Positions 7,172 to 12,060 of a stretch of 20,696 bases of DNA are shown here, in pieces (within the stretch, counting starts at the first letter, position 1; each line of letters starts with the position of its first letter). The notes below the pieces were generated by a model. It saw nothing but the letters and a program-made list of their open reading frames with translations, did no database searches and was not told the DNA's origin. The stretch is from a virus. The stretch is taken from the UHGV virus genome UHGV-0115176; one strand, written 5' to 3'. The translations under genes were made by a program, and so were the position numbers.

Positions 7172-7210
7172 CCCCCAAATAAAAAGGCCTGCGATTACCA
7201 GCAGGCCTTT
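7172..7210. terminator. Strong hairpin / candidate bidirectional intrinsic terminator overlapping the stop of HNH gene 2
   Basis: Perfect 10-bp inverted repeat AAAGGCCTGC (7183-7192) / GCAGGCCTTT (7201-7210) with an 8-nt loop; U-rich tracts follow on both strands (minus UUUUAUUUG; plus AUCUUUUUUU). Confidence 0.6.
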
Positions 7211-7820
7211 ATCTTTTTTTAACACGCTTTCGAGTCCTTTTAGATTTTTCCTTAAGATATTCCGCAAGTTTATCCTCATCATTATTAAATTGAGATAAAA
7301 GCTCATGCTCGCAATTAAGTGCTTTACTCGCATAAGTTCCATATAGTTTCTTTCTTGCTAGTGCTGCTATGAATGCTGCATCTTCTTTGCTATCGAAATA
7401 CCCTAACGATATTGTCTTATTTTTATAACCAACATAAGACTTCCACCTGCCAGTTGTCTTATCCCAAGACACTCCAATCGCACCGGATGTGTTTAACCTA
7501 TTCCCTACAATGTTTCTTGCATTCTGCTCCTCTGTTGCCAGTCTTAGATTTGAAATCCTATTGTCAAGTCTGTTCCCATTTACATGATCAATAAACTTAG
7601 GAGGCCATTTTTTGTATACATAGAACCAAGCAAGTCTATGCGCATAATACAAAACATTATTTATGCTAATGCATATATAACCACCACTAACACCTCCAGC
7701 AATACTACCTTTTACTCTTACTACTGAATTTGTTTTTAGCCATTTAAATATTCCTGTTTCTGAGTCATATGATAATGTTGACAGAAGCTCATCGTGATCA
7801 ATTAGTTTTTTTATTCGCAT
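7209..7820 (-). CDS. HNH homing endonuclease with AP2-type domain (copy 2, AT-rich)
   Basis: 203 aa; FIDHVNGNRLDNRISNLRLATEEQNARN (HNH) and GVSWDKTTGRWKSYVGYKNKTISLGYFDSKEDAAFIAA (AP2-like); paralogous to 3485..3997. Markedly AT-rich with no recognisable SD before the ATG at 7818-7820. Confidence 0.85.
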   Translation of the reverse strand: MRIKKLIDHDELLSTLSYDSETGIFKWLKTNSVVRVKGSIAGGVSGGYICISINNVLYYAHRLAWFYVYKKWPPKFIDHVNGNRLDNRISNLRLATEEQNARNIVGNRLNTSGAIGVSWDKTTGRWKSYVGYKNKTISLGYFDSKEDAAFIAALARKKLYGTYASKALNCEHELLSQFNNDEDKLAEYLKEKSKRTRKRVKKR

Positions 7821-7902
7821 AAAGAATATACTTAATAATATATACAGTAAGAACCATTAGTAACGATAACCCTGCTATCAGCTCAGTGATGTAGATGGCC
7901 AT

Positions 7903-9783
7903 TTAATACTCCGTCACGTTTTCCTGTCGCCACGCCTCGTCATATTCCGATTTCGGCATATTGGCGATGTAGCTATATGGCGATCCTGATTCAAGTTGCA
8001 GGAACTGGTGCGATTGCTCGTCAAGGAACAACGGGACACCACCTTCCCAACCTTCGCCGTTACGTTGTTTTTCAAGCATCAAAACAGATGCAGGAGACGC
8101 CAGTAGCTGTTCGTCCTTCTCTGACATCTTTTCACCACTCTGAACTCTCTGTAACGCTCTCTCGCGAGCCTTGTTACGCCAGATGATGAAAAGGTTGTCT
8201 GTCAGGTCTGTTATCGCTCCAGAGCCTTTTACGTCCATTTTCCCGGTTGGTTTTTCTTCGCTGTCTCCTTTTCGCGAGTGAGTAACGAGAATGACGTGGG
8301 AGTTTGTTTTGTTTTTGAAGTCGCAAATCGAGTCAACAAACGCCTTCTGCCCGTTATAGTCATCGTCGCCTATGCCACATTTCATCAGGCTGTCGATGAT
8401 GAATAACTGGATCCCGTATCGGCGGCGAGCGTAGTCGAATATTTCGATCAGCCTGTCGGCTTTCGCCGTTCCGGTCAGGCCAAACACCCAAAGTCTTTCG
8501 TCATAAAATTTAAATGCAGAGTCAATTTCCAGCACTGGCGGCATCTTGCAGCACGTCGCCTGACGGGTAAGGCGCTTAAGGAGAATACCAGGCTTCAGCT
8601 CAAGTGACGCGATGCACGTCTTCACACCCTGACGCATTGCCTCAAGTGCCATATGCCCGACAACCTCCGTTTTTCCGTGACCGTTCACCCCATTGACCAG
8701 CGTCAACTCTGCCTCACGGAACTGGAATTTATCTGCCAGAGATTCCCACGGTGGATTAAACAGATACTGCTGCTTGCCGTAGAAAGCGTTGATAGTGTCC
8801 TGGTAAAACTCTCGCGCGCTGTAGAGTTCTTCAGGATCGAAGTAGGATGCCGTGCCGATGTACTGCCAGATTTCATCCTCGGTAACACCGTTCATCAGGC
8901 ATTCGTTGATGTCTTTGTACGGCAGAGTAACAAGACGGCAACGATGTTCACCGAGTCGGCTTGCGATTTCCCTTGCGGCTTCACGACCAACATCATCAAC
9001 GTCCATCGAGATGAATATTTCCTCAAACCTGTCGAGGTTGTGATACTCAAACTCAATCCACTGTTGCTTAGCGCCTTTCCCGCCACCAAACGGCACGGAT
9101 AACGCCGAGATGCCGTATTGCGCATAGCTCATACAATCAATTTCGCCTTCGCAAAGCACAACCGCCCTCACGCCAGCGTCCAGAGCCTGCCATCCGAACA
9201 GGCAAGGTTCGCAATCACCTTCTGCCATAATGACTTTCTTCCCGTCCGGGCGCTCAGTGCTGATTCGCTTGACCTGCAACAACTCACCATCGCGTTTGTA
9301 CGGAATCACCAGAGCATCCAGTTCCCGCTCTCCATTCCACACCTTGCCGCTGACAACCTCGTAGCGCTTTACGATTTCTGGCGATATGCCACGCGATTGC
9401 AGGTACTCAAGATGGGATTCTGTTCTGGTAACGTAGCGGGCGATTTTCTTACGATCAGGTCTGGAGAATTTCTTCTCACGTCTGGCATCGAAATGGTGAT
9501 CGTCATCCTTGATACCGAGAAATGCTTTCGCTTCCTGCATAGCCTGATGCAGGTTAATTCCACGACATGCCATCCACAAATCAAGCATGTCACCGCCGTC
9601 TCCCTCAGCGAAATCAGCCCATTTTTTCTTGCCGCTAAGGTTGACCTTAAGGCTGTTTCCCTTGTCACCGTTGACGTTACCGGCAACCCACTCATGCCCC
9701 TCTTTCTTGCCGTTTGGCAACAGGTGTGGAGCCACCCTGTCAACCTGCGCCCAAAGCAGGTAGCTAAGTTCACTTGGAGTCAT
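7903..9783 (-). CDS. Bifunctional DNA primase / replicative helicase (TOPRIM + P-loop DnaB/gp4-like)
   Basis: 626 aa; TOPRIM-like acidic motif VVLCEGEIDCMSYAQYGI, Walker A GVNGHGKT, Walker B-like FIIDSLMKCGIGDDD; ATG at 9781-9783 with GAGGG SD. Confidence 0.8.
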   Translation of the reverse strand: MTPSELSYLLWAQVDRVAPHLLPNGKKEGHEWVAGNVNGDKGNSLKVNLSGKKKWADFAEGDGGDMLDLWMACRGINLHQAMQEAKAFLGIKDDDHHFDARREKKFSRPDRKKIARYVTRTESHLEYLQSRGISPEIVKRYEVVSGKVWNGERELDALVIPYKRDGELLQVKRISTERPDGKKVIMAEGDCEPCLFGWQALDAGVRAVVLCEGEIDCMSYAQYGISALSVPFGGGKGAKQQWIEFEYHNLDRFEEIFISMDVDDVGREAAREIASRLGEHRCRLVTLPYKDINECLMNGVTEDEIWQYIGTASYFDPEELYSAREFYQDTINAFYGKQQYLFNPPWESLADKFQFREAELTLVNGVNGHGKTEVVGHMALEAMRQGVKTCIASLELKPGILLKRLTRQATCCKMPPVLEIDSAFKFYDERLWVFGLTGTAKADRLIEIFDYARRRYGIQLFIIDSLMKCGIGDDDYNGQKAFVDSICDFKNKTNSHVILVTHSRKGDSEEKPTGKMDVKGSGAITDLTDNLFIIWRNKARERALQRVQSGEKMSEKDEQLLASPASVLMLEKQRNGEGWEGGVPLFLDEQSHQFLQLESGSPYSYIANMPKSEYDEAWRQENVTEY

Positions 9784-9887
9784 GATTCCCTCAGATTGAG
9801 ATTTTTAAACCAGAAATCGACAAACGAAATACTTAACCAGCCGTGGTTATAACCAGCGACCAGTAACGATTTGATTTTTGATTTCAT
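9780..9887 (-). CDS. Possible small ORF (35 aa) bridging the initiator and primase-helicase genes
   Basis: Hand translation MKSKIKSLLVAGYNHGWLSISFVDFWFKNLNLRES; ATG at 9885-9887 lies 3 nt after the initiator stop, and its TGA overlaps the primase-helicase ATG. Below the ORF-track size cutoff. Confidence 0.3.
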   Translation of the reverse strand: MKSKIKSLLVAGYNHGWLSISFVDFWFKNLNLRES

Positions 9888-9890
9888 GGT

Positions 9891-10682
9891 TCACCTGTCG
9901 AAAAACACGTAGCCAGTTTTCGATACGGTGATTGCGGATGATGGTTTGGATTGTGGTTGAATAGTTTCTGGCTTCTCGTCGTTCCAGCGCTGACCGTTCA
10001 GGTAGCTCGATGGTAACAACCTGTCGAATCCGAACTGCTTACCATTCCTGCATGCGATGTCTTCTGCCAGCATCGTGGCAAACTCGCTTGCCGTACCCCT
10101 GGTAGTTTTACGCCATTCCCTGAACTGTGTTCTGAATGCTGAAGCTGCGTTTTTCTTCCCGGCTTTCCGCATGCCTGCACACCAGAATATTTCCTCGAAT
10201 GCCTTGTCGGTTTCTTCGTGACGGTCAGGAGTTTTTTCACACTCTGTTCGGACATGTTCGAACATAATGTTTTTAGGTTCATTGACTGGTTCAAAAGAGT
10301 GACTGGTTCTGGGTGAATCTCCTGCACTACCCCCTGGTGCAACTCCTGCACTACCTGGTGAATTTGCTGCACCAGATAGTGAATTATTTGCACTACCCCC
10401 TAGTGAATCTCCTGCACCATCCAGATGAAGGAGATAGATATTACTTGAGTTACCTTTTTCACCTTTCCGGGTGACTTTTTTTACCAGCCCGGACTCACAA
10501 AGGGCCGCAATATGATTCATCACAGAACGTTTGCTAATCTCGCACTGGTCAGCAATATGCTGGTAGCTGGGCCAGCACTCACCCTGATCGCTGGCATTAT
10601 CAGCCAGCTTGATCAGAACCAGTTTTCGCAATGGATTACCCACTCGAATTTTCATCGCTTTAACCATCAGCTCCATACTCAT
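9891..10682 (-). CDS. Replication initiator (HTH DNA-binding, lambda O-like role) containing an internal iteron array
   Basis: 263 aa; N-terminal winged-helix/HTH-like region (KIRVGNPLRKLVLIKLADNASDQGECWPSYQHIADQCEISKRSVMNHIAALCESGLVKKV), then a Gly/Ser/Ala low-complexity linker encoded by the direct repeats, then a C-terminal domain; the ATG overlaps the upstream stop. Confidence 0.7.
   Translation of the reverse strand: MSMELMVKAMKIRVGNPLRKLVLIKLADNASDQGECWPSYQHIADQCEISKRSVMNHIAALCESGLVKKVTRKGEKGNSSNIYLLHLDGAGDSLGGSANNSLSGAANSPGSAGVAPGGSAGDSPRTSHSFEPVNEPKNIMFEHVRTECEKTPDRHEETDKAFEEIFWCAGMRKAGKKNAASAFRTQFREWRKTTRGTASEFATMLAEDIACRNGKQFGFDRLLPSSYLNGQRWNDEKPETIQPQSKPSSAITVSKTGYVFFDR
10312..10422. 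repeat. Five imperfect 21-24 bp direct repeats (iterons), candidate replication origin inside the initiator gene
   Basis: Plus-strand units start near 10312, 10336, 10357, 10379 and 10403 with core GTGAAT(C/T)T(C/G)CTGCAC(T/C)A(C)C; flanked at 10427-10470 by a more AT-rich stretch. Confidence 0.6.
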
Positions 10683-10903
10683 GCTGCACCTCCGAGATGC
10701 TTCATGTTTTTTCCGGAGCGAAAGGCTATAAGCGGCATACTGACGCGGTAATTACGGCCCAGCGGTTCACAAACCACCTTCTGACATTCACGGTCAACCA
10801 GGCTAACACGTAGAACATGCCCTGCAGGCGTGGTGTACCACTGACCCGGACGAGGACAACGGAAAGTATGATTGGTAAACCGTTTGAAAATATTCCGGAT
10901 CAT
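10679..10903 (-). CDS. Hypothetical small protein (74 aa) with three Cys (possible zinc-ribbon-like)
   Basis: ORF-track ORF; 4-nt overlaps with both neighbours (ends 10900/10903 and 10679/10682) imply a translationally coupled operon member. Confidence 0.55.
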   Translation of the reverse strand: MIRNIFKRFTNHTFRCPRPGQWYTTPAGHVLRVSLVDRECQKVVCEPLGRNYRVSMPLIAFRSGKNMKHLGGAA

Positions 10904-12060
10904 TTGCGCCCCCTTACCTCTGAAGGGTTCAGCGACAAATTTATGAGACTGGCCAGTAGCGCCGCGTCGTTGATGCGGTCATACAGACTTACAGCCAGCG
11001 GGGATTCGGCTTTTGCCAACATGGGATAAAGCTGCTGCAGCCAGACCTTGTGGATTACCGACAGGTGGGAGTAAAGCACGCTGGCGTTATCTGCGGCATC
11101 GCTCAGCGTGGATGGCTTTGAAAGCAGTTTTTCCATCTGGTTAAAGGCATTTATGTATGCCTCTTTGAACCGGGCAGCACGTTTACCCGTGAAACCCATA
11201 GCAAGAAACGCAAAACCGTCTCGTGTGATTTGATAGCAAGGGAGCTTGCGTGTACCACCGTTCGGTTGATTTACCGAAATCGATGTCTCCGCAAAATTGC
11301 GGGCACAAAACTCTGGGGAACAATCCAGAGTGCGGATCTTTTTCAGCACATCGTCGTGACGCTTGGAGAAGAAGTTGGCAACAGCCAAAGAAGTGGTAAC
11401 GGCCTGGCCGTTGTCAATGGTGATTTCAGGTTGAGTGAGGGCTGGGATCGTAGCCATGATGGCAGCCTCCGTTGACAGTGAAAAACTTCCACCACCGGAA
11501 ACGCCAATTTCACTGGTGGTGAACTGGACGGGGTTGGCGTAACCGGCGTCAACGGAGACCGGCGCACCTTTCGGTGCCCCCGCCCAGCCCACCATAATCT
11601 GGATGTGAGCAAATGCGGACGATAAAAAAGACGCTGGCGCGTCATACATCGCCGTTGACAATTTCAGGACGCCAATCCCGGCACCCGCTTTATAAGGTGC
11701 CTGAGCAGTGTAACGTCCCGGAATTGCAGAATCAATATGCTGGTGGTCCTTCACACTCAACAAAATCACGCCTGAATTTCCACAAAGGACTAAAGCACTC
11801 ATGCGGGTAGTCTTTGCGAAGATAGATAACGCGCTGTGTTTCTGGCTCCCAACGAATAACATGGACATAAAGCCCTCTTCCGTCACGAAACCAGCGGTTA
11901 AGTTCCTGCACAACTCGCCCCCCACAGTCAGGTAAAGTTCTCTGTGGTTACTTACAGCCAGGTGATTTGGTAATCTGCATTCATGCCGTAACAACAGGTG
12001 TTCAGCGACGCTGACCACCAGCTGTTGCGACAAACGGTTATTTGCCGTTAAACTATTCAT
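10900..12060 (-). CDS. Rha-family phage regulatory protein, long ORF with a ~200-codon N-terminal extension (canonical Rha start at 11457)
   Basis: The segment from the internal ATG at 11455-11457 (GGAGG SD 8 nt upstream) reads MATIPALTQPEITIDNGQAVTTSLAVANFFSKRHDDVLKKIRTLD...ITRDGFAFLAMGFTGKRAARFKEAYINAFN, a Rha-type N-terminus. The same frame stays open for 201 further codons upstream to an ATG at 12058-12060 that overlaps the preceding gene's stop. Confidence 0.55.
   Translation of the reverse strand: MNSLTANNRLSQQLVVSVAEHLLLRHECRLPNHLAVSNHRELYLTVGGELCRNLTAGFVTEEGFMSMLFVGSQKHSALSIFAKTTRMSALVLCGNSGVILLSVKDHQHIDSAIPGRYTAQAPYKAGAGIGVLKLSTAMYDAPASFLSSAFAHIQIMVGWAGAPKGAPVSVDAGYANPVQFTTSEIGVSGGGSFSLSTEAAIMATIPALTQPEITIDNGQAVTTSLAVANFFSKRHDDVLKKIRTLDCSPEFCARNFAETSISVNQPNGGTRKLPCYQITRDGFAFLAMGFTGKRAARFKEAYINAFNQMEKLLSKPSTLSDAADNASVLYSHLSVIHKVWLQQLYPMLAKAESPLAVSLYDRINDAALLASLINLSLNPSEVRGRK

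Follow-up and report, generated by a model that had tools for sequence, protein, structure and literature searches.

An iteron array within an HTH_36 initiator gene as a probable initiator-binding part of a prophage replication origin

Replication origins situated inside the gene of their own initiator are of a well-known kind. In phages lambda, P22 and L the iterons bound by the initiator are distinct and lie inside the sequence that encodes it (PMC8022706, PMC7466680), and the number of iterons differs, with 4 in lambda and 6 in 933W/P27, where the extra repeats lengthen the protein (PMC7466680). In lambda the initiator-bound direct repeats are found mid-gene, between the DNA-binding N-terminal part and the partner-recruiting C-terminal part of the protein, and the layout is alike in the stretch of viral DNA analysed here (UHGV virus genome UHGV-0115176, 20,696 nucleotides, henceforth referred to as the window), in which a minus-strand gene for a 263-aa replication initiator (9891-10682), recognised by Pfam and PHROG profile matches, contains an array of five iterons (10313-10417). 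What is new here is the initiator family, which has a DNA-binding domain of the helix-turn-helix (HTH) type HTH_36 and for which we found no described origin. An initial annotation of the window, made from the sequence alone, had proposed ori-lambda-like iterons inside the initiator gene, and the comparative sequence evidence presented below upholds this proposal. We consider it probable, from comparisons of sequence, that the array is the initiator-binding part of a prophage replication origin located inside the initiator's own gene.

The iteron array and its conservation as DNA

Tandem Repeats Finder reported the array with a period of 24, 4.6 copies, 64% matches and a score of 77, and found no second array of period >10 anywhere in the 20.7-kb window, so that the sole long-period array falls on the five imperfect in-frame direct repeats that had been described initially. 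The 15-bp cores (plus strand, 10313-10327, 10337-10351, 10358-10372, 10379-10393 and 10403-10417) follow one another at core-to-core spacings of 24, 21, 21 and 24 bp, and all five stand in one codon phase. Their consensus is GTGmA-N5-TkCAC, which in gene orientation becomes GTGCA-N5-T(T/G)CAC and forms a partial dyad; in that orientation the cores read, in order, GTGCAGGAGATTCAC, GTGCAAATAATTCAC, GTGCAGCAAATTCAC, GTGCAGGAGTTGCAC and again GTGCAGGAGATTCAC. The array occupies gene nucleotides 266-370 and encodes a linker at about residues 89-124, and the peptide GSANNSLSGAANSPGSAGVAPGGSAGDSP in the minus-strand translation is indeed the Gly/Ser/Ala low-complexity linker that had been predicted for it. 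The initiator coding sequence hence contains, past its DNA-binding domain, at least three direct repeats of ~18-24 bp with an internal dyad. The degenerate core GTGMANNNNNTKCAC has five exact matches in the window, all within the array to which the motif is exclusive, against 0.10 expected from shuffles, a circular count, given that the pattern came out of the array itself. A repeat search also revealed imperfect inverted arms inside the array (I1, 10337-10393), with which long imperfect hairpins are possible. In an Rfam scan of 9700-11000, the sole match, a sub-threshold one to the microRNA precursor mir-875 over 10335-10395, was dismissed as spurious (22 bits vs a gathering score of 84).

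Since the array region encodes a low-complexity linker, we considered whether the repeats could be the footprint of replication slippage within a Gly/Ser/Ala linker of which the peptide is selected and the DNA is functionless. The copy number of the iterons, which ranges from 4 to 9 among close relatives (7 in L034 and 9 in L095), is what slippage-prone DNA would show, and residues 88-138 are without secondary structure in a single-sequence AlphaFold2 model of the initiator, although this model is unusable because its mean predicted local distance difference test (pLDDT) score is only 39. However, the array persists where the linker peptides of different lineages are unrelated. In a set of 16 diverse homologues (from phages of E. 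coli, Shigella, Salmonella, Klebsiella, Pectobacterium, Stenotrophomonas, Vibrio, Psychrobacter and Pseudomonas) Tandem Repeats Finder detected an array with a period of 15-24 bp at gene nucleotides ~245-380 in 13, and an array in the same place occurs in phages of at least 8 genera, with lineage-specific units and unrelated linker peptides such as GAGAARGGAGAAL, STPPVPPESTPPVPPK and GSVRETPGVVSERH. The units are mostly dyad-symmetric, for example GGGCAG-GAG-CTGCCC in Phi24B, GTGTC-AGAGA-GACAC in mEp554, CTGTGC-N9-GCACAG in ZF40 and CTATGC-N9-GCATAG in BUCT709, and perfect inverted arms of at least 5 bp are present in 8 of 12 lineage consensus units. The unit period alternates between 22 and 23 nt in mEp554 and is 17 nt in LESphi3, and the same DNA is therefore read in two or three frames. 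Further, six IMG/VR relatives with the window's recognition helix (L075, L079, L083, L090, L091 and L093) each contain one out-of-phase unit, which is translated as VVQEIHQ in place of GAGDSP and in which the core GTGCAGGAGATTCAC is kept or changed at 1-2 positions. The gene of one relative (L067) is truncated to 137 aa directly past the array.

Third codon positions were compared in 37 distinct sequences that align without gaps. Whereas 61 of 87 positions in the HTH domain were variable (mean entropy 0.373), this was the case for only 3 of 20 in the iteron arms (0.039), a roughly tenfold lower variability in the arms with a Fisher p of 7.9e-6, the counts not being independent samples because many of the compared sequences are close relatives. 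Slippage in a linker selected as peptide is thus highly improbable in our view: the DNA core survives in units that are read in other frames, the arms vary far less at synonymous positions than the HTH domain does, units are dyad-symmetric, and half-sites co-vary with the recognition helix, as described next. These comparisons show selection acting on the array DNA and not on the linker peptide.

To relate the repeats to the protein, ~200 genes were sorted into 36 classes by the recognition helix of their initiator, which in the window spans about residues 50-62 (SKRSVMNHIAAL). A repeated dyad was present in the array of 33 of the 36 classes, and its half-site was common to classes with the same helix and different between different helices. 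The half-site is GTGCA/GTGAA-N5 with the helix S[KR]RSVMNH, GGGCA-N5 with SRSTVKSHIR, GTGTC-N5 with SKSTAMRAVD, GTGTA-N5 with SRKTAIGHID, GTGAC-N5 with SRRSVIRHIQ and GTGAT-N5 with DKRTAMRHIS, while the spacing is longer with SKSAVK.HI (TGTGC-N9) and SKSAVR.HID (TATGC-N9). Between the cores of the window and of Phi24B the differences fall at mirror positions, 2 and 14, which fits expectation, because a dimer that alters its specificity would change both. From the co-variation of helix and half-site, the mirror positions and the co-inheritance of the array with the DNA-binding domain (see below), we infer that the N-terminal domain of the initiator binds at the repeats. The initial annotation had named conservation of the linker without conservation of the repeats among related prophages as the pattern that would speak against it, and the outcome is the reverse, since the DNA repeats are kept while the linker peptide changes and since the position, frame, synonymous-site and helix/half-site data favour a DNA element.

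Instead of the initiator, a different product of the module could bind the sites. Upstream of the initiator gene lie a 74-aa open reading frame (10679-10903), the gene of a Rha/Ash protein (10900-12060) and a CP76-type cII, and the first two are co-inherited with the array in the mEp460-type segment that extends from ~10276 to at least 10900. Nevertheless, a role for either product as the binding protein is barely credible, since the half-site changes with the recognition helix of the initiator itself, the array-bearing homologues show no Rha-annotated gene in the stretch examined, cII is directly upstream in Phi24B, and V039C and mEp554 have yet other neighbours.

The invariant element, the crossover and the flanks

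On its distal side the array adjoins an invariant 36-nt element, AGAACCAGTCACTCTTTTGAACCAGTCAATGAACC(T) (10275-10310, minus strand), which encodes RTSHSFEPVNEP and has a GC content of ~0.4. It contains the decamer GAACCAGTCA at 10300-10309 and at 10283-10292, 17 nt apart, and a third GAACC at 10275-10279; relatives have up to five GAACCAGTCA-type copies at a spacing of 12 nt, and a GAACC periodicity of ~12 nt is kept in the distant members Y8A and LESphi3. Across phages of six genera (E. coli, Vibrio, Salmonella, Klebsiella, Pectobacterium and Stenotrophomonas phages) the element is nearly nucleotide-identical, and the same codon was used for identical amino acids in 339 of 353 pairs (96%) compared with 699 of 1749 (40%) in the HTH domain. 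As the element is near-identical between Vibrio and enterobacterial phages while the flanking codons are synonymously saturated, it is considered to be under purifying selection and not a product of recent exchange. An exact 29-mer of the element occurs in >120 IMG/VR contigs. When this 29-mer was used as an unbiased anchor, an array was present in 45 of 52 distinct upstream segments and in 0 of 260 controls, and many different C-terminal modules were found downstream of it. In the literature, the best 10 of 151 matches to the decamer GAACCAGTCA were all unrelated primer or short hairpin RNA sequences. We propose the 36-nt element as a candidate for the side of the origin at which the DNA is unwound or the helicase enters. 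A more far-reaching reading, which we put forward only tentatively and would not yet favour, is that the element constitutes a universal, specificity-independent origin module of HTH_36 temperate phages in Gammaproteobacteria, held nucleotide-identical amid diverging surroundings, the invariance of which also makes it the joint for exchanging DNA-binding/iteron modules and helicase-recruiting modules; such a module could act as an unwinding/helicase-entry site or as a conserved site for a host factor.

The window itself contains an exchange of this kind. By megablast, positions 9700-10356 (the C-terminal half of the initiator and the helicase) match Phi24B-type Shiga toxin (Stx) phages at 93-96%, and positions 10276-10900 (the N-terminal half, the array and the upstream genes) match phages of the mEp460, cdtI and Stx2a_WGPS2 type at 98-99%, whereas no record among 50,697 phage records and 5,426 complete E. 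coli genomes covers at least 80% of the initiator gene. The mEp460 protein is identical through the linker and then different, with no helicase gene downstream; the ‘O’ protein of Phi24B is identical at its C-terminus but diverged in the HTH, with a linker of its own, and is followed by a long primase-helicase annotated ‘P’. A three-way alignment together with split megablast places the crossover within 10282-10302, 21 nt that are common to all three sequences and fall within the invariant element, with mEp460/SfV-type sequence (N-terminus and array) to the right and Phi24B-type sequence (C-terminus and helicase) to the left. The 57-nt hybrid junction has no exact match in IMG/VR or in one genome per GTDB species. 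The initiator gene is, as judged from these alignments, a recombinant in which the array was inherited with the DNA-binding domain.

The two parental types correspond to described replication units of Stx phages, Eru5 (Stx2a_F403 / Phi24B) and Eru6 (Stx2a_WGPS2 / mEp460 / SfV), classes that in the study of Fagerlund et al. rest on gene content (PMC8951638). In the two papers that define the Eru types, this one included, the word ‘iteron’ was not found and no origin is described. By gene content between cI and the nin region, where Eru5 has an HTH_36 protein with a primase and Eru6 has Rha with an HTH_36 protein, the window is an Eru6/Eru5 hybrid: it is Eru6-like in Rha/Ash, in the 74-aa open reading frame and in the HTH_36 protein's N-terminal half, and the C-terminal initiator half and the primase-helicase are Eru5-like.

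The position of the crossover inside the invariant element, the many C-terminal modules joined at it and the capacity of the array to form hairpins would suit a recombination device, that is, an array and element that serve mainly for the exchange of initiator modules. Such a device would account at best for the invariant element, but not for iterons that are lineage-specific, phased and co-variant with the HTH, and the fact that Vibrio and enterobacterial phages have an almost identical element amid saturated synonymous sites points to a function in each phage. We therefore regard recombination as a very unlikely main role of this DNA.

Next to the array, the initial annotation had recognised an AT-rich stretch at 10427-10470. 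A tract of low GC does adjoin the array there (lowest 40-bp GC 0.325, 6th percentile; window GC 0.473), but the depression is modest and for the most part amino-acid-driven, and it is promoter-proximal to the array, the opposite of the arrangement in lambda and P22. The tract encodes the wing of the DNA-binding domain (…KGEKGNSSNIYLLHL; conserved wing KGNSSNIYLLHL), and its GC is low mainly at first and second codon positions. Selection on the tract as DNA was rejected: GC at third codon positions is low just in the lineage of the window (0.29 vs 0.55), and not in Phi24B, Vibrio phages, S137, ZF40, BUCT709, mEp554, Y8A or LESphi3. Family-wide Wilcoxon p-values for the tract were not relied on, because they are inflated by many near-identical sequences.

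In lambda the AT-rich region is distal to the origin repeats. The distal flank of the window array (10257-10296) has a 40-bp GC of 0.30, which is the 3rd percentile of the window, and a repeat search showed that the invariant element is followed, in gene orientation, by an AT-rich spacer, TAAAAACATTA, and then by palindromic decamers (10245-10274 in all). The decamers, TGTTCGGACA and then TGTTCGAACA, a perfect palindrome, stand in tandem at 10245-10264, at the place of the distal origin palindrome of P22, and the arrangement of spacer and decamers is also found in Phi24B (L001 3549-3569 for the decamers). Because the invariant element, the AT-rich spacer and the palindrome all lie there, as in the anatomy of P22 and BUCT709, the distal side corresponds better to the unwinding region of lambda and P22, and the probable unwinding/helicase-entry region on this analysis is 10245-10310. 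Beside the palindrome a DnaA-box-like 9-mer, TTTTTCACA, is present on the plus strand (10233-10241); it may be due to chance, as TTWTNCACA is not enriched in the window (2 matches vs 2.2 expected).

Two further observations concern the same flanks. The decamers at 10245-10264 are followed by a T-run and resemble a terminator hairpin on the plus strand, antisense to the initiator gene, and a second terminator-like plus-strand hairpin (TCACCTTTCCGGGTGA, then a T-run) occurs at 10459-10474, with the result that the array is bracketed by both. A promoter and terminator scan of 9800-10950 gave counts at chance level, including 2 terminator-like hairpins vs 1.1 expected.

The initiator and its proposed mechanism

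The N-terminal winged-HTH domain of the initiator is encoded at 10419-10682 (minus strand) and was identified by a Pfam HTH_36 match at residues 17-67 (E=1.6e-11), with a weak match to DnaD_N as well, and the PHROG families that match the protein are annotated ‘replication initiation protein / O-like’; a PDB sequence search gave no meaningful match. The C-terminal domain (9891-10274, minus strand) was assigned to the Phi24B / ‘Eru5’ type from alignments and gene tables. It ends in the tail SKPSSAITVSKTGYVFFDR (9891-9950), which is common to the four examined initiators that precede a primase-helicase gene, namely those of the window, Phi24B, S137 and SI8 (loci including L001, L006 and L015), and the C-terminal domains of S137 and SI8 are different apart from it. 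This distribution suggests that the tail is a candidate helicase-docking peptide, or else a piece of the helicase module.

The next gene downstream, on the same strand, encodes a 626-aa primase-helicase, presumed to be the replicative enzyme that the initiator recruits, in which a TOPRIM primase is fused to a DnaB-family helicase (7903-9783, minus strand), with matches to Pfam Toprim_2 (3.1e-12), AAA_25 and DnaB_C and to PHROG 239 ‘DNA primase/helicase’ (E=2.7e-171). The pairing of the initiator with a TOPRIM/helicase protein and not with a P-type loader, as noted initially, is borne out by these matches. The genes around the initiator together form a lambdoid prophage's early-right operon. 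The primase-helicase gene is directly followed by an HNH endonuclease gene with an AP2 DNA-binding domain (7209-7820, minus strand), and the lowest GC of the window (0.15-0.24, ~7765-7840) extends over the beginning of the endonuclease gene and the short interval that separates it from the primase-helicase gene.

By the paradigm of lambda O and P22 gp18 (PMC7466680, PMC8022706), from which the mechanism is inferred, dimers of the HTH_36 domain would occupy the five GTGmA-N5-TkCAC sites, which recur at intervals of about two helical turns, and form a nucleoprotein complex. This complex would destabilise the adjacent distal DNA, comprising the invariant element (10275-10310), the AT-rich spacer and the palindrome (10245-10264), and the C-terminal domain, possibly through its conserved tail, would then bring in the phage's own TOPRIM-primase/DnaB-type helicase. 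Loading of host DnaB in the manner of lambda P and priming by host DnaG would not be needed. The array codons would have a second role in providing the Gly/Ser/Ala linker, the sequence of which would be free to follow the requirement of the DNA.

Several points weigh against an origin at the array. The literature searched contains no experimental report of binding, of unwinding, or of an origin or autonomous replication for the HTH_36 initiator family. Neither flank is strongly AT-rich (0.30-0.33 vs a window mean of 0.47), and in two Vibrio lineages the repeats are without a clear dyad. Salmonella phage SI8, a complete-genome deposit, has a single iteron-like site (L015 1796-1810), and therefore either a multi-copy array is not obligatory or the repeats were collapsed in the SI8 assembly. 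Several of the tests are partly circular, the patterns having come from the array, and the relatedness of the sequences behind the third-position counts belongs here as well. Finally, the P22 origin used as reference, a rep_origin annotated in gene 18 (NC_002371 32840-32984), itself bears the annotation ‘similar to phage lambda’.

Some of these points would suit sites that bind the initiator mainly for autoregulation, as a transcript roadblock or attenuator or by titration of the protein, with the origin elsewhere in the prophage. All of the comparative evidence for protein binding fits autoregulation equally well, the flanks are not strongly AT-rich, and SI8 manages with one site. Against this, in-gene iterons are the origin in lambda, in 933W/P27 and, by annotation, in P22 (PMC7466680, PMC8022706), 3-9 phased sites with an invariant neighbour and, in relatives, a P22-type palindrome make up the layout of an origin and not of an operator, and there is no other repeat array within the 20.7-kb window. 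On balance we judge autoregulation as the main function to be unlikely, and the origin reading is the one we carry forward.

The analysis places a probable origin for the HTH_36 initiator family, to which Eru5 and Eru6 belong and which occurs very commonly in prophages of enterobacteria and Vibrio. In Stx prophages and their relatives it is replication that drives the dosage of the toxin genes and the spread of the phage. The correspondence between helix class and half-site provides directly testable predictions of specificity, and together with the invariant element, for which unwinding, helicase entry, binding of a host factor and a recombination joint are candidate roles, it is the part most worth pursuing. 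Should the element prove to be a universal module, the helix residues and the two variable bases of the GTGnn half-site would amount to a readable code, and plug-and-play design of origins would come within reach. For annotation and engineering it also matters that a seemingly low-complexity protein linker can be the by-product of a DNA element.

Comparison with described origins

The differences from lambda begin with the protein. The initial annotation had held that the HTH type of the initiator is not that of lambda O, and this is confirmed, as the window initiator has no match to Phage_rep_O and matches HTH_36 instead, whereas P22 gp18 matches Phage_rep_O at E=6.9e-38. Between the window initiator and P22 gp18, BLASTP gave no significant similarity (E=3.9), and hhalign of the N-terminal alignment with gp18 gave a probability of 10%. 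A remote homology may exist, because an HHpred link between lambda O and PF13730 has been reported (PMC5509034). The variation in copy number between lambda and 933W/P27 is paralleled by the 4-9 units found among close relatives of the window. Where lambda has a P-type DnaB loader, the partner in the window is the Toprim_2 and DnaB_C fusion and a lambda-P homologue is absent, and some relatives, RAH1 and Y8A among them, carry genes annotated as P-like. On the distal flank the window has the invariant element with GAACCAGTCA, in contrast to the markedly AT-rich tract of lambda.

The order of parts in the P22 gene is the same as in the window: a DNA-binding domain, about four repeats of ~20 bp, an intervening segment, a palindrome and a C-terminal domain. 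Within the annotated P22 rep_origin the iterons are followed by a 45-bp A-rich segment, which stands in place of the invariant element of the window family, and then by a CCCCC..GGGGG palindrome. The iteron sequences are unrelated, the N-terminal domain of P22 gp18 belongs to another Pfam family, and the C-terminal module of the window is of the Phi24B type and not of the P22 type. The two families meet in Stenotrophomonas phage BUCT709, the initiator of which is HTH_36 at the N-terminus and P22 gp18-like at the C-terminus (E=3e-17; loci L009 1501-2484 and L016 1489-2304). BUCT709, mEp554 and others have a C-terminal domain like that of P22 gp18 and the P22-type CCCCC..GGGGG palindrome past the array, and in the BUCT709 type, where it is past the invariant element too, the phage's own iterons and the invariant element occupy the place of the P22 iterons and A-rich segment. 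Comparison of these genes shows that the HTH_36 and P22 gp18 initiator families exchange C-terminal, origin-distal modules.

Iteron plasmids likewise have a winged-helix initiator and phased direct repeats of ~20 bp, as seen in the window. In plasmids the iterons are normally located outside the rep gene and have a further role in copy-number control, through handcuffing. The window differs from a plasmid iteron replicon in that its iterons are inside the gene, its DnaA-box-like 9-mer is a lone, chance-level match, and no Pfam match to the tandem winged-helix domains of Rep_3 was found in the initiator. HTH_36 domains do occur in plasmid Rep proteins of Paracoccus (PMC3832669). Overall, lambda and P22 are the systems with which the layout of the window is shared: the array ‘works like lambda’ and yet is not a lambda O origin, its initiator being outside Phage_rep_O.

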